Positions 19,741 to 57,958 of a stretch of DNA of 64,000 bases are shown piece after piece. The position numbers and the translations under genes were made by a program. Numbering within the stretch: the first letter of the stretch is position 1; each line of letters begins with the position of its first letter. The notes under the pieces were generated by a model. The model did not search any database, had not been told where the DNA came from, and worked only from the letters and a program-made list of their open reading frames with translations. The DNA comes from an uncultured Atopobiaceae bacterium (lineage in GTDB: Bacteria > Actinomycetota > Coriobacteriia > Coriobacteriales > Atopobiaceae), in the NCBI GenBank assembly GCA_963931285.1, contig OZ006999.1:51937-115936 (forward strand), in the 5' to 3' direction.

Positions 19741-19775
19741 ATGATTCAAAAGGGGACAGACCCCTTTTGAATCAT
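19741..19775. repeat. REP-like palindrome, GATTCAAAA subfamily
   Basis: ATGATTCAAAAGGGGACAGACCCCTTTTGAATCAT. Confidence 0.9.
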
Positions 19776-20708: not shown

Positions 20709-21659
20709 GTGAACGTCATCGAGACGCACGGCCTCACCAAGCGCTATCGACGCAAGCTGGCCGTGGACAACCTGGACATGACCGTCGCGGCAGGCGACAT
20801 CTACGGCTTCGTGGGCAAGAACGGTTCGGGCAAGTCCACCACGATGAAGATGGTCGCGGGCCTGGCGCGCCCGACGGCCGGCGAGGTCGTCCTCTTCGGC
20901 GACCCGGAGCACGGCGGCGCCACGCTGCAGGGCTTCTCGCGTATCGGCGCCCTCATCGAGAGTCCGGGCGTGCTGCAGAGCCTCACCGCGCGCGACAACA
21001 TCGTCGCCAAGGCGCTCGCGCTCGGCATGACGCACGCCGGCGCCGTGGCGGACGACCTGCTCGCCCTCGTGGGACTGGACCCGACGGACCACCGTCGCGT
21101 GAAGGCCTACTCGCTCGGCATGAAGCAGCGCCTGGGACTTGCGCTTGCGCTCGTGGGCGGCCCCGACCTGCTGCTCCTTGACGAGCCCTTCAACGGGCTC
21201 GACCCGGAGGCGACGCGCGACATGCGACTCGCGCTTGTGCGACTCAACCACGAGCACGGCGTCACGATCATGATCTCGAGCCACGTGCTCGACCAGCTCG
21301 ACCGCGTGGCCACGCGCTTCGGCGTCATCGCGGACGGACGTCTCACGGCCGAGTTCACCGACGAGGAGCTCCACGAGCGCTGCGGCAGCTCGGTGCGCGT
21401 GCGCCTGGCCGAGCCTGAGCGCGGGCTCGCCCTGCTCGAGCAGGCGCTGCCGCAGGCGACCTTCCGCGCGGAGCCGGACGGCGCGCTCGTGGTGACCGGC
21501 GCCACGCTCGACGAGGTCAGCTCCGCGTGCTTCTCGGCCGGCGTCGAGGTCCGCGAGCTCACGCAGCAGGAGCGCGACATCGAGGAGTACTTCGTCGAGC
21601 TCATGGGTGATGAAAAGGGACAGTCCCTTTTCATCACTAAGGGCGGTGGCGCCCGATGA
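20709..21659 (+). CDS. ABC exporter ATP-binding subunit (BcrA-like)
   Basis: GKNGSGKST, YSLGMKQRLG, LDEPFNGLDP, SSH. Confidence 0.93.
   Translation: MNVIETHGLTKRYRRKLAVDNLDMTVAAGDIYGFVGKNGSGKSTTMKMVAGLARPTAGEVVLFGDPEHGGATLQGFSRIGALIESPGVLQSLTARDNIVAKALALGMTHAGAVADDLLALVGLDPTDHRRVKAYSLGMKQRLGLALALVGGPDLLLLDEPFNGLDPEATRDMRLALVRLNHEHGVTIMISSHVLDQLDRVATRFGVIADGRLTAEFTDEELHERCGSSVRVRLAEPERGLALLEQALPQATFRAEPDGALVVTGATLDEVSSACFSAGVEVRELTQQERDIEEYFVELMGDEKGQSLFITKGGGAR
21607..21637. repeat. REP-like palindrome inside the 3' end of the ABC ATPase CDS
   Basis: GTGATGAAAAGGGACAGTCCCTTTTCATCAC read as GDEKGQSLFIT. Confidence 0.9.
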
Positions 21660-23274: not shown

Positions 23275-24302
23275 TGTCCGACGCGCTCCTCGAGCCGCTC
23301 TACCGCTGGCTTCGGTCGGTCGCGGAGTGGTTGCTCGCAAGCTCTACCATGGGGTCGTGGGTCGGTGTCGTCGAGAGGTTTCGGATGGTCGAGGGAATCG
23401 TGGTCGCCTCGCTGCTGCTCGTGGGCCTGGGACTCGGGGCGTTCTTCGTCTGTGTGTGCTATGCGACCGAGCTCGGGCGCCAGGCTCGCTTCCTGGCGCG
23501 CCGCGAGCGCCTGAGCAACGCGCGGCTCACCTGCGGCAGCCGTCTGCCGGGCATGGTTGCTATGGTCGATGCCGTTAACTCCGAGATCGACGCCGCGGAC
23601 GCGGAGCGCGTGGCGGCCCTGCGCGCGGCCGACGAGTTCTCGCGCGGACTCTCCGCGCTCTCCCACGACGTGCGCACGCCGCTCACCGGCGCCCGCGGCT
23701 ACCTGCAGCTGGCCCGCGAGGAGTCGGACCCGGCGCGCAAGGACGAGCAGCTCGCCGCCGCCGACGCGCGCCTGGCCGCGATGTCGGGCCTTCTGGACGA
23801 GCTCTTCTCATACGCTCGTGCCGCCGACCCGGATACCCCGCTTGAGCTGGGGCCGGTTGCGCTGAGGCCGGTGCTGGAGCAGGTTCTTCTCGGCCATTAC
23901 CCGGAGTTCGAGGTCCGCGACTGGGAGCCGGAGCTCGACTGCGAGGACGTCGTCGTGACGGCGGATAGGGAGGCGCTCACGCGCATCGTGGAGAACCTCG
24001 TGATGAACGCGCTGCGGCACGGCTCCGGCCCGCTCGCGGTGCGCGTGCACCCCGAGGGCGAGAAGGACGGCGAGAAGAACGGCGTGGTCGTTGAGTTCTC
24101 CAACCCCGTGGCCGACCCCTCCGCCATCGACGTCGACCGCCTCTTCGAGCGCTTCTACCAGGCCGACGCCTCCCGCTCGACCGCGGGCTCGGGCCTCGGG
24201 CTCTCCGTCGCCGCCAAGCTCGCCGAGGCTCAGGGCATGACCCTCACGGCCCATCTCTCCGGACCGAACCTCGTCTGTCAATTGGGGACAGTCCCCAATT
24301 GA
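23271..24302 (+). CDS. Sensor histidine kinase
   Basis: LSHDVRTPLT (H box), ENLVMNALRH (N box), FERFY, GSGLGLSV. Confidence 0.93.
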   Translation: MMSDALLEPLYRWLRSVAEWLLASSTMGSWVGVVERFRMVEGIVVASLLLVGLGLGAFFVCVCYATELGRQARFLARRERLSNARLTCGSRLPGMVAMVDAVNSEIDAADAERVAALRAADEFSRGLSALSHDVRTPLTGARGYLQLAREESDPARKDEQLAAADARLAAMSGLLDELFSYARAADPDTPLELGPVALRPVLEQVLLGHYPEFEVRDWEPELDCEDVVVTADREALTRIVENLVMNALRHGSGPLAVRVHPEGEKDGEKNGVVVEFSNPVADPSAIDVDRLFERFYQADASRSTAGSGLGLSVAAKLAEAQGMTLTAHLSGPNLVCQLGTVPN

Positions 24303-24306
24303 CAGA
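24274..24306. repeat. REP-like palindrome, CAATTGGGG subfamily, overlapping the kinase stop
   Basis: TCTGTCAATTGGGGACAGTCCCCAATTGACAGA. Confidence 0.9.
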
Positions 24307-24330
24307 GGGGCGGCTGACCTGACGCCCTCT

Positions 24331-40411: not shown

Positions 40412-42130
40412 ATGAAGTCGACCATGTCCGCCGCCGCGCGCGACTACGTCCGCGCATTCTATCGCGACAACCGCCTCAACCTTGCCGCCGCCCTCGCGCT
40501 CACAGTGCTCGACGTGCCCGCCGCGCTCGTGGGGTCGTGGCTGCTCGGCCGAATCATCGACGTCATCGGCACCGGCGACGCCTCCGCCCTCGCGCGCCTG
40601 GCTGTGTTCTGCGCCGCGTTCCTCGTCGCGTCGCTCGCCGTGAGCCTGGGGATGTACCGCGCCAAGTGCGCCTTCATCTACCTTGCGCTCGCGCAGTACA
40701 AGTCGCTTGCGTTCGAGCGCCTCTCCGAGAAGGGCGTGCGCGCCTTTGCCCGCGAGAACACGGGAAGCTACCTCTCGCTGCTCACCAACGACGTGGCCTC
40801 CATCGAGGAGGGCTACCTCAAGCGCGGCTTCCTCATCGTCTACCACGCTCTTTTGCTCGCGGGGTCGCTCGCGATGATGCTCGCGCTCTCGGTGCCGCTC
40901 ACGGTGGTGGCCGTGGCGCTCAGCGCGGCGCCGCTCGCGGCGTCCGTGGCCATGGGGCGCGAGATGGGGGAGCGCGAGCAGGAGGTCTCGGCCGGCAACG
41001 AGCGCTTCGTCTCCCGCCTGCGCGACCTGCTCGCGGGCTTCTCCGTGGTCAAGGCGTTCCGCGCGGAGGCGGAGGCACGCCGGCTCTTCGACGTGGCCAA
41101 CGCCGAGGTGGAGGGCCTCAAGCGCCGACGCTACTGGTGGGAGTGCCTGATCGGCGCGGTGAGCGAGAACCTCTGCGGGTCGCTGCTGCAGTTCGGCGTC
41201 TTCCTCGCGGGCGCGTGGCTCGCCATCACGGGTGAGGTCACGGCCGGCACGGTGCTCGTCTTCGTGAACCTGTGCAACTACCTCGTCATGCCCATCAACG
41301 TGCTGCCGCAGTTCCTGGCGAGCCGCCGTGCCGCCGTCGGCCTCATCGAGAAGCTCGCGGAGGCTGCCGAGAGGAATGAGGCGCGCCGCGGCGAGAAGGT
41401 CGGGCGCGACCTTTCGGTCGGCGTCGTGCTGGACCATGTGGGGTTCGCCTACGGCGGCGGGGAGCCCGTGCTCTCCGACGTGAGCCTCGCGCTCGCCCCG
41501 GGTGGCCGCTACGCGCTCGTGGGCGCCTCCGGAAGCGGAAAGTCCACGCTGCTGAACCTCCTCATGGGCGGGGAGGACGGCTACGCGGGCAGCATCCGCG
41601 TGGGCGGACACGAGCTGCGCGACGTCGACGCGGGGAGCCTCTGCGACCTCATGGGCCTCATCGACCAGCAGGTCTTCCTCTTTGACGATACGCTGCGAAA
41701 CAACGTGACGATGTTCCGCGACTTCCCCGAGGAGGCCGTTCTGGACGCGTGCCGCCGTGCCGGTCTGGGAGAGCTCGTCGCCGAGAAGGGCCTGGGGTAC
41801 GAATGCGGCGAGGGCGGCGCCAACCTCTCGGGAGGCGAGCGGCAGCGCGTCTCCATCGCGCGTGCGCTGCTGCGAGAGACGCCGGTCCTTCTCGTCGACG
41901 AGGCGACGTCGGCGCTGGACGCGAGGACTGCCGCCGAGGTGGCGGGCGCGATCCTGGACCTCGAGGGGCCCACGCGCCTGGTGGTGACGCACCGGCTGGA
42001 GCCGGCGCTGCTCGAGCGCTACGACGAGATCTTCGTCCTGCGCGAGGGCCGCGTGGTCGAGCGGGGCGCCTACGCCGAGCTTGCGTCCGCGGGCGGCTAC
42101 TTCGCCGGCCTCTGCGCCGTGACGGGGTGA
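40412..42130 (+). CDS. ABC exporter (TMD+NBD fusion)
   Basis: TM domain, GASGSGKST, LSGGERQR, VDEAT. Confidence 0.93.
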   Translation: MKSTMSAAARDYVRAFYRDNRLNLAAALALTVLDVPAALVGSWLLGRIIDVIGTGDASALARLAVFCAAFLVASLAVSLGMYRAKCAFIYLALAQYKSLAFERLSEKGVRAFARENTGSYLSLLTNDVASIEEGYLKRGFLIVYHALLLAGSLAMMLALSVPLTVVAVALSAAPLAASVAMGREMGEREQEVSAGNERFVSRLRDLLAGFSVVKAFRAEAEARRLFDVANAEVEGLKRRRYWWECLIGAVSENLCGSLLQFGVFLAGAWLAITGEVTAGTVLVFVNLCNYLVMPINVLPQFLASRRAAVGLIEKLAEAAERNEARRGEKVGRDLSVGVVLDHVGFAYGGGEPVLSDVSLALAPGGRYALVGASGSGKSTLLNLLMGGEDGYAGSIRVGGHELRDVDAGSLCDLMGLIDQQVFLFDDTLRNNVTMFRDFPEEAVLDACRRAGLGELVAEKGLGYECGEGGANLSGGERQRVSIARALLRETPVLLVDEATSALDARTAAEVAGAILDLEGPTRLVVTHRLEPALLERYDEIFVLREGRVVERGAYAELASAGGYFAGLCAVTG

Positions 42131-42239
42131 CGGGAGCCGGAGCGAAGACCCCCGTTGCCCCCTGAAAAAGAAGGGGGCAACGGGGGGCTGCTGGGCAAAA
42201 TGGCCCTCCGGAGGCCGATTGCTACATGCTTTTGAATGT

Positions 42240-42272
42240 AGTGATGAAAAGGGACTGTCCCTTTTCATCACT
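42240..42272. repeat. REP-like palindrome, GATGAAAA subfamily
   Basis: AGTGATGAAAAGGGACTGTCCCTTTTCATCACT. Confidence 0.9.
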
Positions 42273-43131
42273 CTGCGACAGCCTCGGCCCAGCTCTCGGC
42301 CGTGATGGTCACGGACTCCTCCGGCAGCGTGACGCGCGCGACCTCGACGTTCTTCTCGGCGTCGATGACGGTAATCCCTACGTGCCAATCCGTGGTTCCG
42401 TCGAGCGCCTGCAGGGTGGCGCACATCCCAGGGACGGCCATGAACGCCTGGCCCACGAACAGCGGCTTGTCGAGAAGTGCGGGCGAGGCCGCGATGGTGA
42501 CGGACGCGTGGTCATCCGCGACCTCCATCGCGCTCACGTCCTCTGATTCGAGCAGCGAGGTCACGCTCCCATCGAGGCTCTGCTCCACGTCCGCCCGGTA
42601 GTTTGCGAGTTGCAGCTCCGTGAACGTGAGCACCAGGTCCTCGCCGTCCGCGCGCGCCGCGAGCGCGAGCTCCGAATCCCCCTCGAAGTCTGCGACCAGC
42701 TCTTCGGCGGTTTGCGAGAAGAACCTCAGCATGGACGCGGGGAGGCGCACCTCGCGCGCGTCGCCGAGCGACTCGTAGAAGCTGACGGTGGGCTCCCAGT
42801 CGTAGACCTTGATGGGGAAGGAGAGTTCTTCGGAGGGGTCGCCTATCCAGGTGAGAATCACGTCGTCGCCGACCTCGGGCAGCGCGTCGTTGCCCCAGTC
42901 GGAGAAGCTTGCCGTGCCCCGCACGTCTGCGTCCGTCTGGCCCTGCGGGAGTACGACCTTGTCCGGCAGCTCGAGGATGCGCACTTCGGCGGTCTGGCTC
43001 TCCTCGTCCACCGAGAAGACGAGCGCGCGCACGTGGTGACTGACGGGGCCGCCTGTCGAGTCCGAGCAACCGGGCAGCACGACCAGGCAGACCGCGCACA
43101 GCAGGGCGAGAAGGGCTTCGCGTCGCGTCAT
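42268..43131 (-). CDS. Putative lipoprotein
   Basis: MTRREALL..LPGC signal and lipobox. Confidence 0.8.
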   Translation of the reverse strand: MTRREALLALLCAVCLVVLPGCSDSTGGPVSHHVRALVFSVDEESQTAEVRILELPDKVVLPQGQTDADVRGTASFSDWGNDALPEVGDDVILTWIGDPSEELSFPIKVYDWEPTVSFYESLGDAREVRLPASMLRFFSQTAEELVADFEGDSELALAARADGEDLVLTFTELQLANYRADVEQSLDGSVTSLLESEDVSAMEVADDHASVTIAASPALLDKPLFVGQAFMAVPGMCATLQALDGTTDWHVGITVIDAEKNVEVARVTLPEESVTITAESWAEAVAE

Positions 43132-43138
43132 GATTTAC

Positions 43139-43609
43139 TCACTTTCCGGTGTAGCTCCGAACGGCATACTCCTGGTTGAGATCGACCAGAAACGTAATGG
43201 GCCCCTGGTCGTCGGTGGCCTTTCGCCATGAGCCGTCGACCGAGAAGAACGACTCACCCTTGTAGCTGACTAGCTGGACCTCGATGGTCCCGTCCGAGGC
43301 CGTCTCCAGCGCGTAGACGGCTGGGCTGCCCAAGAGCTGGAGGTCTCTGAGCTCTTGCTCGGCGCCAAAGCGCCTCCCCCTGAGCTCCGCGAGCGCTGCG
43401 AGAACGGAGTCCCGGTCCTCGTCCTCGAGGGCGATGGGGTCGTTCACGCCCATGGCGTCCGATAGGGTGATTGAGGCGACGTCGTCGCGGTCGAGTCCCT
43501 TGAGGGGCATGTCGGTAACGACGCCGAGGCCAGAGGCAAGGAGCACCAGCACAACGACCAAGCAGAACACGATGACGTAGGGCATCTTGCCAAGACGGGT
43601 CCTTGCCAT
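43139..43609 (-). CDS. Membrane-anchored hypothetical protein
   Basis: GGAGG RBS, N-terminal TM helix. Confidence 0.7.
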   Translation of the reverse strand: MARTRLGKMPYVIVFCLVVVLVLLASGLGVVTDMPLKGLDRDDVASITLSDAMGVNDPIALEDEDRDSVLAALAELRGRRFGAEQELRDLQLLGSPAVYALETASDGTIEVQLVSYKGESFFSVDGSWRKATDDQGPITFLVDLNQEYAVRSYTGK

Positions 43610-43918
43610 ATGGCCTCCCTCGACGTGCGGAGCGTGAAACCGATTCTAAGGTACGGGCTCGATGTTCTTCTCGGCCTCCTGGGGGTTCTCGGCCAAGGGG
43701 GGCATGCCCGGCAGGCGTAGCGGCGAGATGCGCTCAATCGACAAGCACGTGCTATCCTAGACGCGGCCTTTCCGTCGATCAGAAGGGGGCAGCGATGAGG
43801 CAGGCGAACGAGGAGACCCTCCGCTAGGGAGGCCCGTTCCCGGCGTGACCCGGTGACGCCCGCACAGGCGGGTGGGCCTTGGCGTGCCGACAGCCTCCCC
43901 GAGGGATCCGACCGCAGG

Positions 43919-43947
43919 CTTGACAAAGGGACTGTCCCCTTGTCAAG
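43919..43947. repeat. REP-like palindrome, TTGACAA subfamily
   Basis: CTTGACAAAGGGACTGTCCCCTTGTCAAG. Confidence 0.85.
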
Positions 43948-43975
43948 GTCGACCCTTCGTGAAAGGCATCCCAAC

Positions 43976-45154
43976 TTGATACCGCTCTACTACGCCTACG
44001 TGGCGTTCTCCAACCTGTCCATGGTCTCCACGGTCATGGGCCTCTACCTCGAGCACGTGGGCTTCTCGCTCGCGGGCGTCGGCGTGCTGTTCGGGGCGCT
44101 GCAGCTGGGCAAGACCCTGCTCGAGGTGCCCACGGGCTTCGTCGCGGACCGCTTTGGGAGCCGCGCGAGCCTGATTGCGGCGGTGGCGCTCGAGATGGCA
44201 GGCTACTCCCTCATGCTCGTCGCGCGGGGGCTCCCGGCGATGCTGTGTGTGATGCTCGTCCTCTCCTCTGCCTACACGCTCACCACGGGATGCGCGACGG
44301 CCATCGTGGCCGACCACCTCATCGCGCGCGGCCGCGAGGGCGAGCTCACGCGCGTGAGTGCCGTCTCGCGCATCGTCTTCTACTGCTGCTACGGGGCCTC
44401 GGCGCTCGCGGCGGGGCTGCTCGCCGATGTGGGCTACGCCCTCGTCTTCGCGCTCTCCATCGCGTCGCTCGCGGGCGCGCTCGCCTGCGTGCTCCTCATG
44501 CGCGACGACCGGGCGGGCGAGAAGGACGGCGCGCCCGCGGCCCCGGTCCGTGCGCTCGAGGCCGCGCGCTACGTCGCCGGCTGCCGCCCCGTGCTCTACT
44601 ACGTGCTGGTTGAGGGCGCGGTCGCGTGGTCGATGGTGCCCGTGGACGACTTCTACAACAACTACCTCAACGGCTACTTCGGAGTCCCGCTGTCGGCGGT
44701 GGGCGCGGTCGTGGCGGCGCAGTTCGCGGTCACGAGCCTCGCGGGGCTGGGCAGCTCTCGGCTCGCGCGGCGCCTGGGGGACGCGCGAGTGACGCGGCTC
44801 GGCCCTCTCGCCGTGGTCGCGCTCTTCCTGGCGTTTGCGTTCTGCGCGGAGCCCCGGGCGGCCGTTGCGCTCTACATGGCGGGGCTCGCGGCGTTCTGCC
44901 TCGTGAGCCCCGTGCGCACCAAGGTGCTCAACGTCGCGCTGGACCCGCGCTACCGCGTGACCTCGCTCTCGTTCGCCTCGATCGCGGTGTCGCTGCTCTC
45001 GGCCGTCTCGCAGCCGCTCTTCGGCTGGCTCTCGGGCCTGCTGGACATGCGGCTCGCCATGGTGGCGCTGCTCGCGACGTCGATTGCCCTCCTCGGCGCG
45101 ATCAACCTGGCGTTCTCACACACCGACCTGCTTCAGAAGGAGGCGCATTCATGA
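43976..45154 (+). CDS. MFS transporter
   Basis: EVPTGFVADRFGSR motif A, about 12 TM helices; TTG start inferred from GAAAGG (ORF open from 43853). Confidence 0.88.
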   Translation: MIPLYYAYVAFSNLSMVSTVMGLYLEHVGFSLAGVGVLFGALQLGKTLLEVPTGFVADRFGSRASLIAAVALEMAGYSLMLVARGLPAMLCVMLVLSSAYTLTTGCATAIVADHLIARGREGELTRVSAVSRIVFYCCYGASALAAGLLADVGYALVFALSIASLAGALACVLLMRDDRAGEKDGAPAAPVRALEAARYVAGCRPVLYYVLVEGAVAWSMVPVDDFYNNYLNGYFGVPLSAVGAVVAAQFAVTSLAGLGSSRLARRLGDARVTRLGPLAVVALFLAFAFCAEPRAAVALYMAGLAAFCLVSPVRTKVLNVALDPRYRVTSLSFASIAVSLLSAVSQPLFGWLSGLLDMRLAMVALLATSIALLGAINLAFSHTDLLQKEAHS

Positions 45155-45624
45155 CCATCGAGCTCTATCGCCCCGCCGTGCGCGACCTCTGGTTCAAGCG
45201 TGAGCTCCTGGCCGACGAGGCCACCATGTCCTACAACCGTGCCTGGGGAGGGACCGTCGACTTCCCGGAGGACCTCTGGGGCCGCTGGCACGACGCCTGG
45301 GTCGCGCGCGAGGACGAGGGTCGGCGTTACTACCGCTACCTGCGTGACCTAGACGCCGGTGAGTTCGTTGGTGAGGTCGCTTACCGTTGGGACCCGGACT
45401 ACGACAGCTTCATCACGGACGTGCTCGTCCACGCCCGCTTCCGCGGGCGCGGGTACGGCGCCGCTGGCCTCGAGCTCCTTTGCGACGCGGCCCGCGGACG
45501 CGGCGTCGCGACGCTGCGCGACAACGTCGCCCTGGACAACCCTGCCATAGCCCTCTTCCTGCGCCACGGCTTCGTCGAGGAGTGGCGCAGCGACGAGTTC
45601 GTCATGCTGAGGCGCGATCTGTAA
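45151..45624 (+). CDS. GNAT acetyltransferase
   Basis: VHARFRGRGYG, NPAIALFLRHGF. Confidence 0.9.
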   Translation: MTIELYRPAVRDLWFKRELLADEATMSYNRAWGGTVDFPEDLWGRWHDAWVAREDEGRRYYRYLRDLDAGEFVGEVAYRWDPDYDSFITDVLVHARFRGRGYGAAGLELLCDAARGRGVATLRDNVALDNPAIALFLRHGFVEEWRSDEFVMLRRDL

Positions 45625-45631
45625 ATCGGGT

Positions 45632-45693
45632 AACCATGCATACCCGTCATTTAAGGACGAAAAATGGGTCGGATTTGACGGGTGTGCATGGTT
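45632..45693. repeat. 18-bp inverted repeat
   Basis: AACCATGCATACCCGTCA / TGACGGGTGTGCATGGTT. Confidence 0.7.
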
Positions 45694-45836
45694 GGCCTTT
45701 TGTGGCGGGGGCTGATAATCCACCAGCGGGCCCTGGCAGACCGTCCGCCGGGTCGGGGCGCCTGCCCCCCCCGATTGGGTACTATACGTCAAAGGTCGGG
45801 CGACGTGCTCGGTCTGGCTCTGGAAGGTGGCGCGTC

Positions 45837-46175
45837 GTGGAGTACGTCTGGATGTGGGGCATCATCGCCGGAGTTCTCGCGGTTATCTCCGTCGTGCTTC
45901 TCAGCGGGCGGGGCGCAGGCTTCCTCGCCGGTTACAGTACGGCTTCGCCCTCGGATCGAGCCCACGTCAGCGCATCGAAGCTCGCGAGAACCATGGGAGG
46001 GGCGATTCTCGTGTGCGCGGCCTATGCCGTTGCCGTTGCGCTCCTCGTCTACGCACATGTCCAGGGTGCCGTGGACAGAACGACGCTCTTCCTTACGTGC
46101 GGCGTCGGCGCGATTGTGCCCATCGCTGCGCTCTGCGTCGCGGGCTATCGCGCGAACATGGGGACGTGTGTCTAG
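45837..46175 (+). CDS. Small membrane protein (DUF3784-like)
   Basis: GRGAGFLAGYST..KLARTMG pattern with three TM helices. Confidence 0.7.
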   Translation: MEYVWMWGIIAGVLAVISVVLLSGRGAGFLAGYSTASPSDRAHVSASKLARTMGGAILVCAAYAVAVALLVYAHVQGAVDRTTLFLTCGVGAIVPIAALCVAGYRANMGTCV

Positions 46176-46286
46176 TTTTTCCCACCCCAACATCTCGCGC
46201 GGAAAACCGCGCAACTCGTGAGGGATCTCGTCACGCTCGCCGCCTGCGTCGTATCACATACTGGATACGAAAGGATGTGATTCGAC

Positions 46287-48203
46287 GTGCAAGAGACGAA
46301 AGCTGCTGTGGCGACTCAGCGCCGTTATGGCTTCGTGAGCAACGTCGCACAGCTCCTGCGCTGGCTGGTTCGCATCTGCGGGCCTCGTGCGCTCGCCGTG
46401 TGCGCGTTGGATGTGGCCGCAGGTGTGACGCAGCCCTTCCTTGCGGCGGCCCTTCCCAGCGTCGTGGTTGCCGCGCTCACGTCCGGGGCGGAGCCACTTG
46501 TTGCGCTCGCGCTCGTGGCGGGTGCGGCCGCCCTGCTCCAGGTGCTCGTGGTGCTCAAGGCCTGGACGCAGGCCAAGTCCAACTGGTATTACACGTGCAC
46601 CCGCGTCTGGGGCGGGCTCGACCTCTGCCGGGACGCCCTCGCCGCGGACTACCGCTACATAGAGAGCGACGAGGCGCATAAGAAGCTCGACCTCGCCACC
46701 CGCGCGTTCTTCAACGACAGCTCCATGGGCGTCGAGGAAGCGCTGCGGCGGCTCTTTGCCGCAGTGGGCGGCGCGCTCGGCATGGTGGCGTACGCGGCGG
46801 TCATCGGCATGTTTGTCCCGTGGCTGCTCGTGCCGCTCGCGCTGCTCACCGTTGTCTCCATCGCGGCGAACCGCTGGGCAAACGAGAAGAGCTATGCCGT
46901 CATGGACGACGAGTTCGCTGCAAGCGAGGCCTTTGATTACCTCAGGCGCCAGGCGCTTGATTCCGCCAACGGGAAGGACATCCGCCTCTACCGCATGGCG
47001 GCGTGGTTCAAGCGCGCCTTCGCACAGGTGCTCGATCGCAACGTTAAGCTCAGGGACATCGAGTACGGGGCCTTCGAGCGGGCAGGAAACGTGGCCGCCG
47101 CCTGCGCCCTTGTCCGCGATGGTGCCTCCTACGTCACGTTCATCTGGCTCATCTTTGCCGGCTCGATTGACCTTCCGGCGTTTCTGCTGCTTGCGGGTAT
47201 GGTCTCCGGATTTGGCACGTGGATGCTGACCGCCTTTGACAGCCTCTCCGAGCTCACGGTCCAGCTGCGCCACGTGAGCGCATACCGCGAGGTGCACGAC
47301 GACTGCGCGCCTATCGCTTGCGGCACAAACGCCGCCCCCAACCCTGGCTGCGCTCACGAGATTCGTCTCGACCACGTGTCCTTCTCGTATGACGGCAGCG
47401 AGGACGCGGTGCACGACCTCACCCTCACCATACACCCTGGCGAGAAGATCGCCCTCGTGGGCGTCAACGGCGCGGGCAAGACCACGCTCGTGAAGCTCCT
47501 CTGCGGGCTCTACCGCCCCACGTCCGGCAGCATCTACCTCGACGGCGTTGACGTTGCGTCCATCAATCCCCGGAGCCTGTGGCGTGAGTTCTCGGTGGTC
47601 TTCCAGGACTGCTTTCCCTTCTCGTTCACCGTTGCGGACAACGTGAGCTGCTCGGGGGGCGAGAAGGACGTGGATCCCACGCGTCTGGATACCAGCCTTG
47701 CCCAGGCGGACCTCGCCGAGAGGGTCGCGGGGTTGCCGCATGGCGCGGAAACCCACCTCGGGCAGGACGTTGACCCCGAGGGTGTCTCGCTCTCCGGTGG
47801 CGAGACCCAGCGGCTCATGCTCGCCCGCGCGCTCTACAAGGGCGCGCCGGTGGTCCTTCTCGACGAGCCGACCGCGGCGCTCGACCCGTTGGCTGAGCGC
47901 CAGATGTACGAGCGCTACGACGAGCTCACGGCGGGCAAGACGAGCGTCTTCATCTCACACCGGCTCTCGTCCACGCGATTTTGCGAGCGAATTCTCTACA
48001 TGGAGGGCGGGCGCGTGGTCGAGCAGGGCACGCATGACGAGCTCATGGCCGCGGGCGGCGGCTACGCCCGCATGTTCGAGACCCAGGCCCGCTACTACGA
48101 GGATGATTCAATTGGGGACAGACCCCTTTTGAATCATGAGTTCGATGATTCAAAAGGGGTCTGTCCCCAATTGAATCATGGGGGTGATGAGGATGCTGAG
48201 TAG
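46287..48203 (+). CDS. ABC exporter (TMD+NBD), C-terminus extended by a REP doublet
   Basis: GVNGAGKTT, LSGGETQR, LDEPTAALDP. Confidence 0.93.
   Translation: MQETKAAVATQRRYGFVSNVAQLLRWLVRICGPRALAVCALDVAAGVTQPFLAAALPSVVVAALTSGAEPLVALALVAGAAALLQVLVVLKAWTQAKSNWYYTCTRVWGGLDLCRDALAADYRYIESDEAHKKLDLATRAFFNDSSMGVEEALRRLFAAVGGALGMVAYAAVIGMFVPWLLVPLALLTVVSIAANRWANEKSYAVMDDEFAASEAFDYLRRQALDSANGKDIRLYRMAAWFKRAFAQVLDRNVKLRDIEYGAFERAGNVAAACALVRDGASYVTFIWLIFAGSIDLPAFLLLAGMVSGFGTWMLTAFDSLSELTVQLRHVSAYREVHDDCAPIACGTNAAPNPGCAHEIRLDHVSFSYDGSEDAVHDLTLTIHPGEKIALVGVNGAGKTTLVKLLCGLYRPTSGSIYLDGVDVASINPRSLWREFSVVFQDCFPFSFTVADNVSCSGGEKDVDPTRLDTSLAQADLAERVAGLPHGAETHLGQDVDPEGVSLSGGETQRLMLARALYKGAPVVLLDEPTAALDPLAERQMYERYDELTAGKTSVFISHRLSSTRFCERILYMEGGRVVEQGTHDELMAAGGGYARMFETQARYYEDDSIGDRPLLNHEFDDSKGVCPQLNHGGDEDAE
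48103..48179. repeat. REP doublet inside CDS
   Basis: Perfect 35-bp inverted arms (48103-48137, 48145-48179) with a 7-nt spacer. Confidence 0.93.
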
Positions 48204-50028
48204 CCTGGCGTTTCACAGGACGGGGCTGCGGCTGCTCGCCCTCGTGCGCAAGATCGACCCGGCGCTTCTGCCAGTGAGCCTCATCTACGCGCTCACTCAG
48301 GTGGCGGGCATCTACGTGGGCCTTGCGCTCACGGCAGGGCTCGTTGACGCGCTCGTGGCGCTCGAGCTTCGCGGGGCGGTGGTCTATGCGTCGGCCCTCG
48401 TGGTGACATCCTTTGTGGTCTCCTGTGTCTGCGCGCGCTGCAAGCGACGCGCGACGGTCGGCGGCATGCGGTGCGCCTGGCGCTTTAGCCTCATGCTGCG
48501 CGAGAAGACCCTCTCGCTCTCCTACGAGACCGCCGAGGATCCCAAGCTCGCCGAGCGCATCGCCTACATCGAGCGAACCGCCCAAATGCACGGCAGCATC
48601 GGCACGCTCCCTCGCTTTTATCGCGACCTCATTGGGGCGGCAGTCAACATGCTCACCTGCGTGTCTCTCGTGGTGGCGCTTGCGTTTACGCGGCCCGCGA
48701 CAACAGGCGTGCTCGGCGTCGTTGCCTCACCTGCGGTCTCGGTGCTGTTGTTGGCGCTCGTTCTTCTCATCTCGCTCGGCGGAAACACGCTGGTGGGCCG
48801 TTTTCGCGCGCGCCTTCTTGAGTGGGTTACGAGCACGCACTCCTCCGTTGAGAACCGCATCATGTACCTGCTCAACCTCGTCCTCTTTGACCGGCGCGTA
48901 CCCAAGGTGGCACGCATCTACGACATGGGCGACATGCTCATGCGCAATCTCGAGAAGAACCATGGCGCTTCGATAGAGTACTTCGATCGCTGGATTACGG
49001 GCGAGCGGCGCATTGACGTGGGGACGAGCGCCGTCAACGCCGTCTTCACGGTGGCCTCCTATGCGCTCGTGGCGGTGAAGGTACTTGCGGGCGCCATCAC
49101 CGTGGGTGCGTTCACCCAGTACGCTGGCGCACTCGCGCAGTTTGGCGCAGCGTATACGGCGCTCGTGTCCAACAACGGAGACCTACGTCAATGCTGCGGC
49201 TACCTGCGGGAGTTTCTTGACTTCATGGAGATGGAGGACCCGCGTCCCGCAGGTTCCATCCCGGTTGAGAAGCGCGATGACGGGCAGTTTGAGCTTGCCT
49301 TTGAGCACGTGAGCTTCCGCTATCCCGGGACGGACGCCTGGGTGCTGCGCGACGTCAACCTCAAGATCGACACGCTCGGCAAACTTGCCGTGGTAGGTCC
49401 CAACGGCGCGGGCAAGACGACGTTCATCAAGCTGCTCTGCCGTCTCTACGACCCCACGGAGGGGCGCATCACGCTGAACGGCGTGGACATCCGCAAGTAC
49501 GACGAGGAGGAGTACCGCGACCTCTTTGGCGTGGTCTTCCAGGACTTCAAGCTCTTTGCATTTCCTGTGTGGGAGAACCTGGTTGCGGGCTATGAGCGCG
49601 ATGACGCACGCCTGTGGAAGGCGCTCTCCCAGGCGGGGGCGGACGAACTCGTGCGCGCGTGGTCCGAGGGGCTTGAGACACGCCTCTACAAGGACCTCGG
49701 CGACGGCGTGACGCCGTCGGGCGGCGAGGCGCAGAAGCTCGCGCTGGCTCGCGCGCTCTACAAGGACGCGCCGGTCGTGATTCTGGACGAGCCCACGGCG
49801 GCACTCGACCCCATCTCGGAGGCGGAGGTCTACGCGGGGTTTGACCGCATGGTTGAGGGTCGTACGGCAATCTACATCTCGCACCGCATGAGCAGCTGCC
49901 GGTTCTGCGACGATATCATCGTCTTTGACGGCGGGCGCGTCGTGGAGCGGGGGAGCCACGACGAGCTTCTCGCCAAGCGCGGACTCTACGCCCAGCTCTG
50001 GGACGCTCAGGCAAGCTACTACGTGTGA
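48187..50028 (+). CDS. ABC exporter (TMD+NBD), paralogue of the preceding gene
   Basis: GPNGAGKTT, SGGEAQK, LDEPTAALDP, ISHRMSS. Confidence 0.93.
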   Translation: MRMLSSLAFHRTGLRLLALVRKIDPALLPVSLIYALTQVAGIYVGLALTAGLVDALVALELRGAVVYASALVVTSFVVSCVCARCKRRATVGGMRCAWRFSLMLREKTLSLSYETAEDPKLAERIAYIERTAQMHGSIGTLPRFYRDLIGAAVNMLTCVSLVVALAFTRPATTGVLGVVASPAVSVLLLALVLLISLGGNTLVGRFRARLLEWVTSTHSSVENRIMYLLNLVLFDRRVPKVARIYDMGDMLMRNLEKNHGASIEYFDRWITGERRIDVGTSAVNAVFTVASYALVAVKVLAGAITVGAFTQYAGALAQFGAAYTALVSNNGDLRQCCGYLREFLDFMEMEDPRPAGSIPVEKRDDGQFELAFEHVSFRYPGTDAWVLRDVNLKIDTLGKLAVVGPNGAGKTTFIKLLCRLYDPTEGRITLNGVDIRKYDEEEYRDLFGVVFQDFKLFAFPVWENLVAGYERDDARLWKALSQAGADELVRAWSEGLETRLYKDLGDGVTPSGGEAQKLALARALYKDAPVVILDEPTAALDPISEAEVYAGFDRMVEGRTAIYISHRMSSCRFCDDIIVFDGGRVVERGSHDELLAKRGLYAQLWDAQASYYV

Positions 50029-50103
50029 TCCAATTGGGGACAGACCCCTTTTGAATCATTTGGTTCAAAATGATTCAAAAGGGGTCTGTCCCCAATTGGA
50101 TCA
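50026..50103. repeat. REP doublet
   Basis: 34-bp inverted arms TGATCCAATTGGGGACAGACCCCTTTTGAATCAT with a 10-nt spacer. Confidence 0.93.
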
Positions 50104-50121
50104 AGGGGAGGGGAGAAGGAC

Positions 50122-50844
50122 GTGCTGCGCGTTGCCGTTGTTGATGACGAGGAGGCGGCCCGAGAGATCTACGGCGCGCTCGCGCGCGACTGGGCTCGAC
50201 GGCGCAGCATCGAGGCTGAAGTTGCGGCCTTTGCGTCCGCCGAGCAGCTGCTCTTCTCGCTGGACGACGCGCCGTGCGACATCGTCCTCCTCGACATCGA
50301 GATGTCGGACCTCGACGGCATGGGCCTTGCCCGCGAGCTGCGGGCCCGCAGAGAGCTCACGCAGATCGTGTTCGTGACGGGCATCATCGATCACGCACTC
50401 GACGGCTATGACGTGGACGCCGTCTCCTATCTCATCAAGCCCGTTCGCGCCGAGAAGCTCGAAGCCGCGCTCGACCGTGCTCTCGATCGTGCGGGGCGAG
50501 AAGAGCCCGTGCTCGTGGTGGAGTCGGCGGGTGAGATTAGTCGTGTGCCCCTCACGCGCATCTGCTTTCTCGAGGCACGCGGCCACGACACGCTGGTCAC
50601 GCTCGCGGACGGCACGCGCCTCGTCTCGACGCGCGGGATTTCGCAGATGGAGGCGGAGCTCGCCAAGGTGTCCGGCCTCTTCCTCAAGACGCACCGCTCA
50701 TATTTCGTGAATCTCCCGCACGTGCGGCGCATCACGCGGCGTGAGGTCGAGATGGACACCGGCGACGTCCTCCCCATCGCCCGCGGGCGCTGGGAGGAGC
50801 TCAACCGCGCGTGGCTCGCGTGGTGTCGGGGGACGCTCGCATGA
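50122..50844 (+). CDS. LytTR-family response regulator
   Basis: VVDDE, LDIEM, YLIKP; FLKTHRSYFVNL LytTR motif. Confidence 0.93.
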   Translation: MLRVAVVDDEEAAREIYGALARDWARRRSIEAEVAAFASAEQLLFSLDDAPCDIVLLDIEMSDLDGMGLARELRARRELTQIVFVTGIIDHALDGYDVDAVSYLIKPVRAEKLEAALDRALDRAGREEPVLVVESAGEISRVPLTRICFLEARGHDTLVTLADGTRLVSTRGISQMEAELAKVSGLFLKTHRSYFVNLPHVRRITRREVEMDTGDVLPIARGRWEELNRAWLAWCRGTLA

Positions 50845-52082
50845 TCGCGCTCGCGGCACAGGCGGTGCTGCTCGCTGTGTACGCGGCGTATGTGCGCCGG
50901 CTCGGGCGCCTGCGTGCGTCACGCAGTGCGTGGGTTGTCGCGCTTACCATCTGCGTGGGCGCGCTTGCCAGCGGTTGGTTCGGCGGCGCGATCTGGTCCT
51001 GGGCTCTCACGGGCTCTGCCGCGGACCCACTTTCTGCAGGCGTGCCCTGGGGCGTCCTCATCGCGTGGGCCGCGGTGGCGCTCACCCTCACGCTGTTTGA
51101 TGCCTTCTTCGACGAGGATCCCGTCTCGCTCATGTGGGCGCCCGTGGCGGCGCCGGGCCTGCTGACCTGTGTTCTTCTCGCCTACGTCGTCGGCCTGGGC
51201 GGCGGCGTTGCGCCGACCACCGTTGCCGCCGCGATCGTCGGAGCCCCGCTCTGGCTGATGTTCGCGCTCTCCATGCGCCGGCGGGGGAGCGTGAGCCTCC
51301 ATGAGACGGTCCTTCTCGCCTGCGTGCTCGCTCTTTGCTCGGCTGCGGTCGCCTTTGCCGAGCCCATGGTCGCCGCCGGAGCCCTCGTGGTGGAGCTTCT
51401 CGTCTACCTGCTGCTCACGGGCGGCTTCGAGCGCCTCCGCCGCGGCTTCGAGAGCACGACGGAGCGCTTCCAGCAGGAGGTCCTCTCGCGCCAGTACGAC
51501 GAGATCCGCGGCATCTACCTGGACATGCGCGGCTGGCGTCACGACTATCACAACCACCTGCAGGTCATGAAGGCAGACCTCGCGGCCGGGCACCTCGAGG
51601 AGCTCTCGGCCTACCTCGACGACCTCGAGCGCGACCTCGATCGCGTGGACACCTACGTCAAGTCCGGCAACCTCATGGTGGACGCCATCCTCAACTCAAA
51701 GCTCAGCCTCGCCGAGAAGGGCGGCGTGTCCGTGACCTGCAAGGCCGTGGTGTCGGAGTCGCTGACGGTGGACGACGTGGACCTCTGCGTGATCTTGGGC
51801 AACCTCCTCGACAACGCGCTCGAGTCCTGCGAGAAGCTGCCCGCAACCGAGCGCTGGCTGCGCGTCTACCTGGCCGCGCGCGGCTCGCAGCTCTACATGA
51901 GCGTCCAGAACTCCGCCGTGGAGGACCCGGGCTTCAACGCGCGCAACTACATCACCGAGAAGCGTGGCAACCACGGCCTGGGCATGAAGCGCGTGGCTGC
52001 CGTCGTGGACAAGTATGAGGGGTTCCTCAACCTCGCAAATGAGCCTGGTATCTTTGCCGCCGAGGTCAGCCTCCCGCTGTGA
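50841..52082 (+). CDS. GHKL (AgrC/VirS-like) sensor kinase
   Basis: TM N-terminus, WRHDYHNHL, GNLLDNALE, HGLGMK. Confidence 0.92.
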   Translation: MIALAAQAVLLAVYAAYVRRLGRLRASRSAWVVALTICVGALASGWFGGAIWSWALTGSAADPLSAGVPWGVLIAWAAVALTLTLFDAFFDEDPVSLMWAPVAAPGLLTCVLLAYVVGLGGGVAPTTVAAAIVGAPLWLMFALSMRRRGSVSLHETVLLACVLALCSAAVAFAEPMVAAGALVVELLVYLLLTGGFERLRRGFESTTERFQQEVLSRQYDEIRGIYLDMRGWRHDYHNHLQVMKADLAAGHLEELSAYLDDLERDLDRVDTYVKSGNLMVDAILNSKLSLAEKGGVSVTCKAVVSESLTVDDVDLCVILGNLLDNALESCEKLPATERWLRVYLAARGSQLYMSVQNSAVEDPGFNARNYITEKRGNHGLGMKRVAAVVDKYEGFLNLANEPGIFAAEVSLPL

Positions 52083-52118
52083 ATGTTACGAAGGGTCTGT
52101 CCCTTCGTAACATTCACA
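52078..52118. repeat. REP-like palindrome between convergent genes
   Basis: TGTGAATGTTACGAAGGGTCTGTCCCTTCGTAACATTCACA. Confidence 0.9.
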
Positions 52119-52851
52119 CGATCGCGTCGAAAGCGTTCAGGAGGTCCCTCTCGAGCGCCCTCTCGTCCACGGCGAACCCGTTATCGGAGCGCGTGAGGGC
52201 AACGCCGAGCGTGCGTTCCTCGACAGGAGCCGACTCCGCCGTGGTTTCAAAGGTACGGATGACGTCCTCCTGTAGAACCTCCGAGAGCGGCTCACCGTCG
52301 CGCACGCCCTGGTTGTGGAAGTAGGTACTCATGCCCTCGCTGGCCTTGGACACGATTTCGCCAGCCCGGGGCGTCCAGACGCGCACGCCGACGACCGCCG
52401 CGTCGCCGGAAAGCCCGACGTCCTCGATGGAGTACGTGAGACGGGAGACCATCTGACCCGCCCACGCCTTGGCGTCGATGCCGAGGTCCTCGGGCGTGTG
52501 GCGCAGGCTCTGCCTGAGCCTGCCCTCGAGCCAGCCCGCAAGCTCGGCGGCTAGGTCGCTCGAGCTCAGCTCCCCTTTTAGGGCGGCAAGCCGCGTGCCC
52601 GCTGCGTCGACGGCTGCCTGCTCGTCGGCGGTGAGATCGAAATAGGGGAGCGCGATGCGGTCCTCTGTCGGAGCGTCAAGCTGCTCCGAGACGCGGCTCC
52701 CAAACCGCGTCGCGAACTGCACGACGTTGACCACGAGAAACACCGCGATAAGCACCGCAATCACTGCCGCAGTCCGCCTGCTATAGCCGCGCGCCTGCAG
52801 ATTCTCGCGCATCTTGGGCGAGTTCATCGTGACCGGAGGCTTCTCGTACAT
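52114..52851 (-). CDS. Membrane-anchored hypothetical protein
   Basis: AAGAAAGGGG RBS, single TM helix, soluble domain. Confidence 0.7.
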   Translation of the reverse strand: MYEKPPVTMNSPKMRENLQARGYSRRTAAVIAVLIAVFLVVNVVQFATRFGSRVSEQLDAPTEDRIALPYFDLTADEQAAVDAAGTRLAALKGELSSSDLAAELAGWLEGRLRQSLRHTPEDLGIDAKAWAGQMVSRLTYSIEDVGLSGDAAVVGVRVWTPRAGEIVSKASEGMSTYFHNQGVRDGEPLSEVLQEDVIRTFETTAESAPVEERTLGVALTRSDNGFAVDERALERDLLNAFDAIV

Positions 52852-52975
52852 GGTCGCCCCTTTCTTAAGGGCTGACAGCCGAATCGCTGTCGTTTCCAAG
52901 CTTGTACCCAGCGTGGGGGGGCTAGGCGCGCGTCTGCCGAGTGGATGATGCCGTCTGCCGGACGTCCTTCTCGAC

Positions 52976-52994
52976 ATTATCGATAGACGATAAT
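52976..52994. promoter_or_regulatory. Palindromic operator candidate for the DUF2975-HTH operon
   Basis: ATTATCG-N5-CGATAAT about 55 bp upstream of the start codon. Confidence 0.6.
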
Positions 52995-53047
52995 TAGTGG
53001 TACAAGAACGATAAGAACAGACGGACGAGAAGAACGGAGGGGTCGCG

Positions 53048-53755
53048 ATGAAACACGAGATGTTGACAAGGGCGCAGGTGGACGGGCGTATCCGCGGCGC
53101 CGCGCGCGTGGCGACGTGCTTCTGCTGGGTCGCCGCTCTGGTGGCCCTGCTCCTGGCCCTGTTTAACGCGTGGTCGACGGTCTTCCTCACGACCGCATCG
53201 ATGGAGGAGACCGGCCGCGACGTCCTGACCGCCTTCTTCACCACGAGCAAGGCGAGCGGCAGCTTTCTCGTGAGCGAGACGGACGAGCAGCCTCCGGAGA
53301 TTCGTTACGACGAGGACGGCAACGAGGTCGGTCGCTCGCAGGTCATGGGCGGCGATGTCTCCTATTCCGGCAGTCCAATCTCGACCCTCGCCAACGGCGT
53401 CGTCTTTGGCGGCCTGGCGTGCGCGGCGTTTGCCCTCGCGGCGCTCATGTGCTCCAAGATCCGTCAGACCGGCGTGCCGTTTGCGCCCGAGCGCGCGCGT
53501 GAGCTGGGGCGCGTGGGGTGGCTGGTCCTTCTCGCCGGGTGCGCGCCCACGCTGCTCCACATGGTCCTCGAGGCCGTCGCGGCCGCGGTGGTCAACGCCC
53601 TGGTGGAGTCCGGCGAGATGCTGAGCTACGCGCTCACGGCGAACTTTGAGTCCCAGGACCTGATGCTCGTCTCGCTGGGGATCGTGCTGGTGCTGGTGGG
53701 CCGGGTCTTCGAGTACGGCTGCATCCTGCAGAAGCAGGACGACGAGACGCTGTGA
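53048..53755 (+). CDS. DUF2975-like membrane protein
   Basis: TM helices, PFAPERAREL, VFEYGCILQKQDDETL C-terminal signature. Confidence 0.85.
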   Translation: MKHEMLTRAQVDGRIRGAARVATCFCWVAALVALLLALFNAWSTVFLTTASMEETGRDVLTAFFTTSKASGSFLVSETDEQPPEIRYDEDGNEVGRSQVMGGDVSYSGSPISTLANGVVFGGLACAAFALAALMCSKIRQTGVPFAPERARELGRVGWLVLLAGCAPTLLHMVLEAVAAAVVNALVESGEMLSYALTANFESQDLMLVSLGIVLVLVGRVFEYGCILQKQDDETL

Positions 53756-53765
53756 GGGCCGCGCG

Positions 53766-53975
53766 ATGATTGTCCTGCGCCTCGACCGTGTGCTGGCGGA
53801 CCGCAAGATGCGCTCGAAGGAGCTCGCCGAGCGGGTGGGCATCTCCGAGGTCAACCTCTCCCGCATCAAGACCGGGCGCATCTCCGCGGTGCGCTTCTCC
53901 ACCCTCGACGCGATCTGCCGCGTGCTGGACTGCCAGCCCGGAGACATCCTGGAGTACGTCCCGGACGAGGAGTGA
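53766..53975 (+). CDS. Small XRE HTH regulator (YozG-like)
   Basis: LDRVLADRKM..LSRIKTG..VRFSTLDAICRVLDCQPGDILEY. Confidence 0.92.
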   Translation: MIVLRLDRVLADRKMRSKELAERVGISEVNLSRIKTGRISAVRFSTLDAICRVLDCQPGDILEYVPDEE

Positions 53976-53996
53976 CTGCTTGCCGGCACAACCTCA

Positions 53997-54135
53997 AGGG
54001 TATGTACACCGCCCCTTCAGGGTATGTACGATCCTGGGTGAGAGGTTCTTATCGCCCAGCCCTTTGAGCTGCGGGTTTGCGAGAAGGACCTCTGACCGGG
54101 GTGTACATACCCTGAAGGGGCGGTGTACATACCCT
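53997..54135. repeat. MITE-like element with doubled AGGGTATGTAC terminal motifs
   Basis: Motifs at 53997/54019 and 54101/54123 (22-bp period), complementary linkers CGCCCCTTC / GAAGGGGCG. Confidence 0.85.
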
Positions 54136-54244
54136 CAAATGGGTTCGCCTGCGCCGGAGCTGCGCGCCGCCCCCAACCGTGAAATATCTGCCGAGACGCG
54201 GCCTTCCTGCGGAAGTTTGCTACTATATGAAGGCTGTGAAATCC

Positions 54245-54331
54245 GCGGGCGTGGTGGAACTGGTAGACACGCTGGATTTAGGTTCCAGTGGGGGAGACCC
54301 CGTGAAGGTTCGAGTCCTTTCGCCCGCACCA
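54245..54331 (+). tRNA. tRNA-Leu(TAG)
   Basis: GCGGGCG/CGCCCGC acceptor stem, CTGGA-TTTAGGT-TCCAG anticodon arm, long variable arm, GGTTCGAGTCC T loop, CCA end. Confidence 0.96.
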
Positions 54332-54384
54332 CGCAAGGAAACATGGCGGGGCAGGCCCGCCAGGCACGAGACACTGGAGGAACG

Positions 54385-55734: not shown

Positions 55735-55816
55735 TCTCACGCTCACGTTCACGGAGCCCCGGGCGAGCAACTCGTCCGGGGCTTTCTACAAATAACGTCG
55801 AACGAACGGAGTTCGA

Positions 55817-56434: not shown

Positions 56435-56437
56435 CGC

Positions 56438-57757
<1,320 letters not shown>

Positions 57758-57807
57758 CCTGACCGCAAGACGCAAGGGGGGGCGTCGTCCACTCCGGACG
57801 GCGCCTC

Positions 57808-57921: not shown

Positions 57922-57932
57922 TAAAAAGTATG

Positions 57933-57958
57933 GTAATCGGGGACTGTCCCCAATTTAC
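57933..57958. repeat. REP-like palindrome overlapping the GT8 stop codon
   Basis: GTAATCGGGGACTGTCCCCAATTTAC. Confidence 0.8.

Follow-up and report, generated by a model that had tools for sequence, protein, structure and literature searches.

This study deals with a palindromic repeat that lies inside the coding sequence of an ATP-binding cassette (ABC) exporter gene, in a stretch of 64,000 nucleotides from an uncultured Atopobiaceae bacterium (contig OZ006999.1, positions 51,937 to 115,936; the whole stretch is called the window here). The repeat occupies positions 48103-48179 of the window and is a doublet of repetitive extragenic palindromes (REPs). We propose, with a probability of about 0.78, that it is a REPIN-like element (REPIN, REP doublet forming a hairpin) from a family linked to REP-associated tyrosine transposases (RAYTs), and that it has become lodged in a permissive spot, where translation turns it into a disordered extension and selection holds it open and in frame. 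It is, most likely, tolerated selfish DNA whose reading frame selection preserves. The evidence comes from the anatomy of the doublet, from a series of in-frame alleles at the same codon in relatives, and from the other members of its repeat family.

The doublet at the exporter junction

The gene that carries the doublet, termed gene 1 (46287..48203, + strand), has a putative GTG start at 46287 and codes for 638 residues with fused membrane and ATPase domains (Pfam ABC_tran PF00005, E 2e-32). The following ABC exporter gene, gene 2 (48193..50028, + strand; identified from its open reading frame (ORF) and Pfam), codes for 611 residues. From the ATG of gene 2 at 48193 onwards, the two genes share 11 nt (ATGCTGAGTAG), and the usual TAG stop of gene 1 falls inside the start of gene 2. 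In relatives, the public gene calls give an overlap of the same length. Because of this overlap, there is no extragenic space at the exporter junction. Relatives have GGAGG in place of the Shine-Dalgarno (SD)-like GGGGG at 48180..48184 (+ strand), which starts 1 nt past the right arm of the doublet and, judged from the sequence, appears to be placed to serve the ATG of gene 2. As an earlier first-pass annotation of this DNA had held, the doublet leaves this SD and the start of gene 2 intact.

The element is built with great regularity. The left arm (48103-48137, ATGATTCAATTGGGGACAGACCCCTTTTGAATCAT) and the right arm (48145-48179), which is its exact reverse complement, pair at 35 of 35 positions around a 7-nt spacer, GAGTTCG (48138-48144). 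Each arm holds one REP unit with the 13-nt core GGGGACAGACCCC, at 48114-48126 on the + strand and at 48156-48168 on the - strand, and the two units recur with a period of 42 nt. The coordinates given by the first-pass annotation, as well as its assignment of the doublet to a dispersed repeat family, are borne out. The minimum-energy fold of the doublet is one continuous stem, in which the T-run is paired. For the RNA of 48080-48215 (136 nt, doublet included), the folding energy is -77.4 kcal/mol (z = -9.6 against shuffles), and the stem of the insert alone amounts to about -61 kcal/mol. The insert has 43% G+C, as against 66% for the window.

Of the doublet, 75 nt on the + strand (48105..48179) correspond to residues 607-631 of gene 1, so that its C-terminus reads ARYYED-DSIGDRPLLNHEFDDSKGVCPQLNH-GGDEDAE before the stop. 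Only one of the three + strand frames of these 75 nt is free of stop codons (hand reading). The 25 added residues and the very peptide had been put forward before and remain valid, the tail that receives them being dispensable, and the arithmetic by which the removal of 48105-48179 yields YYEDGGDEDAE followed by a stop is right. The tryptic peptides expected from such a tail are PLLNHEFDDSK and GVCPQLNHGGDEDAE. The homology of gene 1 to solved ABC ATPase domains, as judged from the sequences in the Protein Data Bank (PDB), stops at residues 601-605. In an AlphaFold2 model built from 48 homologues, the last helix ends at residue 608, and residues 607-638 have a confidence score (pLDDT) of around 30, all being below 50. 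Since the homology ends there and the confidence is low from residue 607 onwards, the 25 extra residues are predicted to project beyond the folded ATPase domain.

It had also been suggested that the insertion duplicated an AT target. This could not be upheld, as the AT at either end belongs to the arms of the palindrome, and the flanks of other copies (GT/AT, TA/AC) are not direct repeats.

A few further observations concern the doublet. A programmed frameshift was considered and set aside, there being no slippery heptamer before the hairpin (hand reading). A search of Rfam 15 returned only generic long-hairpin matches (microRNA and plastid 3' untranslated region models), far under the gathering scores. 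In one relative (P0022, on a 132-kb contig), a frameshifted gene 1 runs into the doublet out of its usual frame and is cut short by the TGA in the left arm (...MIQLGTDPF); this illustrates the outcome of out-of-frame reading and may be a long-read assembly error.

An allelic series at one codon

The comparison with relatives covered 33 protein tails and 12 DNA junctions, in which the site lies between TACTACGAGGAY and GGRGGY. One locus (L001), from an uncultured Olsenella, is 97% identical, and the host of the window is an Olsenella. The same doublet as in the window is present in L001 and in another locus, L002. Thermophilibacter provencensis (L004, 83% identity) has a doublet of 78 nt. Singlets of other REP subfamilies are found in L013, L003 and the contigs X1 and X29, a different palindrome in L014, and shorter hairpins in L015 and L006. 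A remnant of 9 nt, GATTCAATT, translated as 'DSI', is all that stands at the site in L011 and L012, and Olsenella uli An733 (L005) has no clear hairpin. The lengths of the 11 alleles (9, 27, 30, 33, 33, 36, 36, 36, 51, 75 and 78 nt) are all multiples of three. The alleles are mostly palindromic, and the end GG(D/E)xDA(E/R) is kept in all of them.

Nearly all relatives, down to 61% identity, carry a REP-like palindrome or a remnant at this site, and a clean empty site (YYEDGGDEDAE) was found in none of the 33 tails and 12 junctions. That the element entered an empty site in one clean step is therefore not supported. The first-pass annotation had named orthologues that lack the REP and yet share the C-terminal length and sequence as evidence against an insertion; none was found, and doublet-free relatives have shorter tails.

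The alleles point to a rapid turnover. The 'DSI' allele corresponds to a deletion of 66 bp bounded by the TGGGG pentamers at 48113-17 and 48179-83; one metagenome contains both this allele and the doublet, and the allele is also found in several long contigs of >2 Mb. Two pairs of allele lengths, 33/75 and 36/78, each differ by 42 nt (14 codons). As the units also recur at 42 nt, it is suggested that the interconversion of singlets and doublets would preserve the frame automatically. When a protein tree was built without the tail, the tail alleles did not follow it, which points to either recombination or repeated replacement. The strength of the hairpin varies from 0 to -70 kcal/mol among close relatives. 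With regard to expression, one metatranscriptome contig runs from gene 1 across a singlet allele into gene 2. Outgroups at 47-53% identity have variable acidic tails of similar length, and the peptide motifs on either side, D-S/P-x-G-D ... P-x-L-x-H/Q, are shared by lineages reaching from the window as far as the Olsenella profusa-like ones.

The arms of the doublet are conserved. Between the window and L002, none of the 70 arm positions differs, at a third-codon divergence of 14% (P ~2e-5 at the synonymous rate), and the sole change lies in the spacer. The doublet of T. provencensis has 8 arm differences from that of the window, each of which is mirrored on the other arm (hand alignment). Its arms are complementary at 36 of 37 positions, although the local GGGG/CCCC stem of the inner half is lost. 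The changes being compensated in spite of this loss, it is the long hairpin that is maintained. The perfection of the arms may stem either from selection on the hairpin structure or from template-switch correction of the palindrome. Compensatory changes are common in REPINs, for which selection on structure has been proposed (PMC3116915), and the arms of quasi-palindromes can be kept perfect by template switching without selection (PMC5941160).

The repeat family and its RAYT-like partner

With one mismatch allowed at most, the window holds 9 matches to the core GGGGACAGACCCC, against an expectation of 0.12. When all units with a GGG(G)WCWGWCCC(C) core are counted, there are 13-14 in the 64 kb, nearly all at gene boundaries and often overlapping stop codons. 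In the family of the doublet, the core GGGGACAGACCCC is surrounded by the arms TGATTCAAAA/TTTTGAATCA, and three singlets, ATGATTCAAAAGGGGACAGACCCCTTTTGAATCAT, accompany two doublets. The singlets are located at 19741..19775 (intergenic, no strand assigned), 24489-24521 and 25273-25303 (the last two from the hairpin list). The second doublet (50026..50103, + strand) has perfect arms of 36 nt and lies in the intergenic region ahead of a gene for a LytTR regulator, its left arm containing the TGA stop of gene 2. Sister subfamilies have the same centre with other arms, for example GTGATGAAAAGGGACAGTCCC... at 13183, 21607 and 42240. REP arms start with (A/G)TGATTC, and the singlets are shaped A4-G4-loop-C4-T4 and adjoin stop codons.

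Of the 40 REP units with arms found in the high-G+C sequences examined, just one singlet is entirely enclosed by a long ORF. The translation of a REP is an exception, which arises where the overlap of genes leaves no extragenic space. The window provides a second instance of it, in that a singlet of a sister subfamily, GTGATGAAAAGGGACAGTCCCTTTTCATCAC (21607..21637, + strand), is read in frame as 11 residues in the tail of an ABC ATPase gene (20709-21659). This gene overlaps the next one by ATGA, and the REP stands just before the overlap. Its homologues of similar identity measure 316-317 residues with the REP vs 309-311 without it. Yet another singlet, CTGTCAATTGGGGACAGTCCCCAATTGACAG (24272..24308, + strand), supplies with its left arm the last ~9 codons of the ORF 23037-24302 and with its right arm the TGA stop. 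Other REPs that contain or touch stop codons were seen at 50026-50028, 52078-52118 and 42268-42270.

Generic transcription terminators were considered as a source of such repeats and rejected. The stem CAAAAGGGG-N5-CCCCTTTTG was found only three times in IMG/VR, with the loops CTTCG, TCAAC and CTTTG and never with ACAGA. A terminator consensus scan of 41000-58500, a range that takes in both doublets but not the singlets of the same family (family A), flagged neither doublet, and its counts were not above those of shuffles.

Outside the window, the doublet pattern had no matches in the JGI metagenomes. A metagenome scan with the 23-nt singlet core gave 102 stretches, in contigs of 26-70% G+C and with lineage-specific outer arms. 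The exact 23-mer CAAAAGGGGACAGACCCCTTTTG is present at these loci (L016-L117), for example between the arms AAAATAGTA...TACTATTTT in contigs of ~47% G+C; it often adjoins stop codons, sometimes forms doublets, and its loop fits WCWGW. An arm variant from contigs of middle G+C had no match in the plasmid and phage collections. A REP core common to such different genomes suggests either horizontal spread or a conserved recognition rule.

At five of the metagenome loci, an ORF of ~250 residues is flanked on both sides by inverted, core-bearing REPs, a layout known as 'REPtron'. Three of these are of high G+C (L018, L055 and L073; 64-67%) and two of low G+C (L047 and L049; 28-29%). The RAYT-like genes extend over 97-873 (- strand) in L018, 2322-3098 (+ strand) in L073 and 165-926 (+ strand) in L047. 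The flanking REP arms of L018 (64% G+C) agree with the window singlet at 34 of 35 positions, and in the 28% G+C contigs the flanking REPs are doublets on both sides. Because the same 35-nt REP flanks a RAYT-like Y1 gene in these Olsenella-like metagenome contigs, the doublet of the exporter is regarded as REPIN-like.

The RAYT-like proteins score 49-62 bits against Pfam Y1_Tnp (PF01797; cut-off 23). Their best NCBIfam match is NF047646 (REP-associated tyrosine transposase), which is covered over its whole profile with 62-64 bits, below the equivalog cut-off of 80. The high-G+C proteins have, in addition, a C-terminal extension of ~110 residues with a weak Trp_repressor-like helix-turn-helix match in Pfam. 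The proteins of L018 and L047 are only 44% identical, and the REP core is nevertheless common to both. Their homologues carry transposase annotations and come from Candidatus Olsenella species and from Arabiibacter, and a search of PDB sequences gave no match. A paralogous RAYT-like gene, P0291 (54% identical; L124-L127, 1501-2337), was observed between a gpmI-like gene (iPGM-type phosphoglycerate mutase) and secG. The contigs that carry it measure up to ~2.5 Mb (2.03 Mb for the one read) and share their ENA accession series with the genome of a close relative; the REPs that flank the gene are of a different type (GGATGGGGACGGGTTCATTTCATCC). This suggests that an Olsenella genome holds several RAYT-REP pairs. 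In the literature searched, the core motif GGGGACAGACCCC occurs in no bacterial paper, queries for Olsenella palindromes gave only unrelated papers, and a REP-RAYT system of Coriobacteriia (Olsenella, Thermophilibacter) was found nowhere described.

Competing explanations, known systems and neighbouring repeats

On the preferred reading, the 77-bp element is made of two inverted units of a REP family that is dispersed in Olsenella and Thermophilibacter genomes and that, in related contigs, flanks the gene of a RAYT-like Y1 (IS200-type) tyrosine transposase. Such elements usually stand right at gene ends. At the exporter junction, an insertion would be tolerated only in the unstructured end of gene 1, after the last ATPase helix (YYED) and before the SD of gene 2. 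The element would then be transcribed with the operon, and ribosomes would pass through it as a 25-residue, unstructured and probably neutral extension before stopping at the usual TAG. Selection would keep each allele free of stops and at a multiple of three. The site would turn over fast, with doublets collapsing through deletions that are bounded by short direct repeats, singlets from other subfamilies taking their place and recombination shuffling the alleles among strains.

Several points weigh against this. No RAYT homologue was detected in the 64-kb window by tblastn, and a cognate enzyme in the same genome is presumed. The L018-type RAYT was only partial and of lower depth in the sequencing runs that hold the window, and X39, a run of low complexity from 'organism A' (possibly an isolate), lacked it as a whole gene. 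Neither an empty site nor an insertion junction was found, so insertion is deduced from membership in the family. The production of the peptide is a prediction from the reading frame, and the RNA contig spans a singlet allele, not the doublet, in a library that may also contain DNA. Finally, the persistence of a palindrome at this codon down to 61% identity could mean that the hairpin is selected for a function.

This last point leads to an unlikely but substantial alternative, namely that the hairpin is a selected intercistronic RNA element, which tunes mRNA stability, processing or translational coupling and for which REP-like sequences were recruited or retained. REPs in E. coli operons stabilise the upstream mRNA and can affect translation. 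Palindromes of different sequence at the same codon in so many relatives would agree with such a role, as would arms that are more conserved than synonymous sites, the full compensation of the 8 arm differences in T. provencensis after its local stem was lost, and a very stable stem of ~-61 kcal/mol that ends just 1 nt ahead of the gene 2 SD. However, the hairpin is dispensable, because natural alleles (the 'DSI' remnant and O. uli An733) have no strong hairpin, and among close relatives its strength lies anywhere between 0 and -70 kcal/mol. Equal amounts of both ABC halves are probably required, as assumed from a likely heterodimer; template switching can keep arms perfect without selection (PMC5941160), and the same family stands at many unrelated gene ends. 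A broader and likewise unlikely scenario combines both ideas. The junction would be a standing hot spot, where RAYT-driven REPs (with a 23-nt core shared by contigs of 26-70% G+C) insert, replace one another, double and collapse in a translated linker, the frame being partly protected by the 42-nt (14-codon) period and the hairpin being co-opted to set the translational dependence of gene 2 on gene 1.

It is very improbable that the sequence is not mobile DNA at all and represents an old, vertically inherited linker of low complexity, palindromic by chance and diverged in place, whose likeness to dispersed repeats is secondary. The recurrence of the flanking motifs as far as O. profusa-like lineages and the similar-length acidic tails of the outgroups would fit this. 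Nevertheless, the arms match intergenic copies of the window, and the REPs that flank the RAYT-like gene, almost perfectly (33-35 nt), the G+C content of the insert departs from that of the window, and the alleles come from several REP subfamilies without following the protein tree. An artefact of assembly or gene calling, either a mis-joined palindrome or a gene 1 that ends further upstream, is scarcely credible. Short-read contigs do break at the repeat in the four chicken-gut metagenomes that hold the stretch, where the word depth is 340-780 over the doublet against 4.5-19 in the single-copy flanks. Yet two independent assemblies (L001, L002) hold the identical in-frame doublet, as does a protein cluster with 108 member sequences (P0002), which argues against an assembly artefact. 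There is also no stop codon between YYED and the TAG, and the other alleles are spanned by single contigs.

The closest known counterparts of the doublet are the REPIN-RAYT systems, which are well described in Proteobacteria, as in Pseudomonas fluorescens SBW25 (PMC3116915, PMC5581495). Like the REPINs of SBW25 and the REPs and bacterial interspersed mosaic elements (BIMEs) of E. coli, the present family consists of a short palindrome repeated at many gene ends. It resembles REPINs in its inverted doublets with a short spacer and one long hairpin, in the coexistence of singlets and doublets, in the compensatory arm changes and in the lack of a target-site duplication. In related contigs, a Y1_Tnp/RAYT-like gene lies between inverted copies of the same REP, as in REP-RAYT systems. 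Unlike the systems described so far, the host is a Coriobacteriia actinobacterium, a group not mentioned in the RAYT literature examined. The GTAG and CGTC heads of the proteobacterial REP classes are absent, a head being what defines those classes and not the mechanism. The RAYT-like protein also differs from described RAYTs, with its ~250 residues, its C-terminal extension and a score below the NCBIfam equivalog cut-off, and the copy at 48103-48179, unlike usual REPINs, sits inside a reading frame and is translated along with it. The doublet is another case of a REP/REPIN, now in Coriobacteriia, and the mechanism is not new.

The first-pass annotation had drawn an analogy to the Rickettsia palindromic elements (RPEs), for which we know of no RAYT partner. 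The part of the analogy that holds is the translated selfish palindrome; the family is a different one, as the element is of the REP/REPIN type and, in related contigs, copies of its REP stand on both sides of a RAYT-type gene. Palindromic repeats read in frame are already familiar from the RPEs (Ogata et al. 2000) and from intragenic enterobacterial repetitive intergenic consensus (ERIC) sequences and MITEs, the miniature inverted-repeat transposable elements (PMC10969869). RPEs, too, are selfish palindromes that lie in frame within coding genes and add a peptide where the fold tolerates it; they measure ~100-150 bp, belong to Rickettsia, encode conserved peptides and are often found in the middle of a protein (PMC10969869). 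The doublet, on the other hand, measures 77 bp, is unrelated in sequence, resides in an Olsenella, encodes peptides that vary between alleles and forms a C-terminal tail at a junction of overlapping genes.

The likeness to intragenic MITE-type repeats (ERIC and other enterobacterial small mobile sequences, Delihas 2007; BOX; cyanobacterial MITEs; PMC10969869) is that these are small, non-autonomous and able to fuse in frame with host ORFs. MITEs, though, have terminal inverted repeats and target-site duplications and derive from DDE insertion sequences, whereas the doublet is palindromic throughout, shows no duplication and is associated with an enzyme of the HUH/Y1 type. In their shape and their position at stop codons, the singlets resemble bidirectional intrinsic terminators and SPRITE-like elements. 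They differ from these in that the T-run is paired in the stem and the sequence is unrelated, and in that the doublet lies inside an operon and requires read-through.

What the junction offers, then, is a well-documented translated element of the REP/REPIN type outside Proteobacteria and Rickettsia. The natural series of in-frame alleles at one codon, with doublets, singlets and remnants, displays both tolerance and turnover where overlapping genes leave no room between them. A REP-RAYT system is indicated in Coriobacteriia, and its hairpin core appears in contigs of very different base composition; the 23-nt core across phyla is the most interesting loose end. For annotation, variable repeat-encoded C-terminal tails and assembly breaks are to be expected in these genomes.

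The neighbourhood of the exporter holds further repeats. Downstream of gene 2 and the second doublet, the LytTR regulator gene is followed by that of a kinase, and relatives have other repeat elements at the spot of the second doublet. In L002 and L003, an inverted-repeat element of ~110 bp with the ends AAAGGGGACGTGTTTTTTCGCGCAGAG replaces it 3' of gene 2, and this end motif recurs in the window near 57900 (about 57890-57921). In L011, yet another element, with GGGTATGTACA repeats, is found there. The over-represented motif GAGAAGGAC, given in the first-pass annotation as CGAGAAGRAC, stands directly 5' of start codons, at 50110-50121 of the window and, in L119 and L120, before an ATGA overlap; its excess may partly reflect the consensus of the ribosome-binding site.

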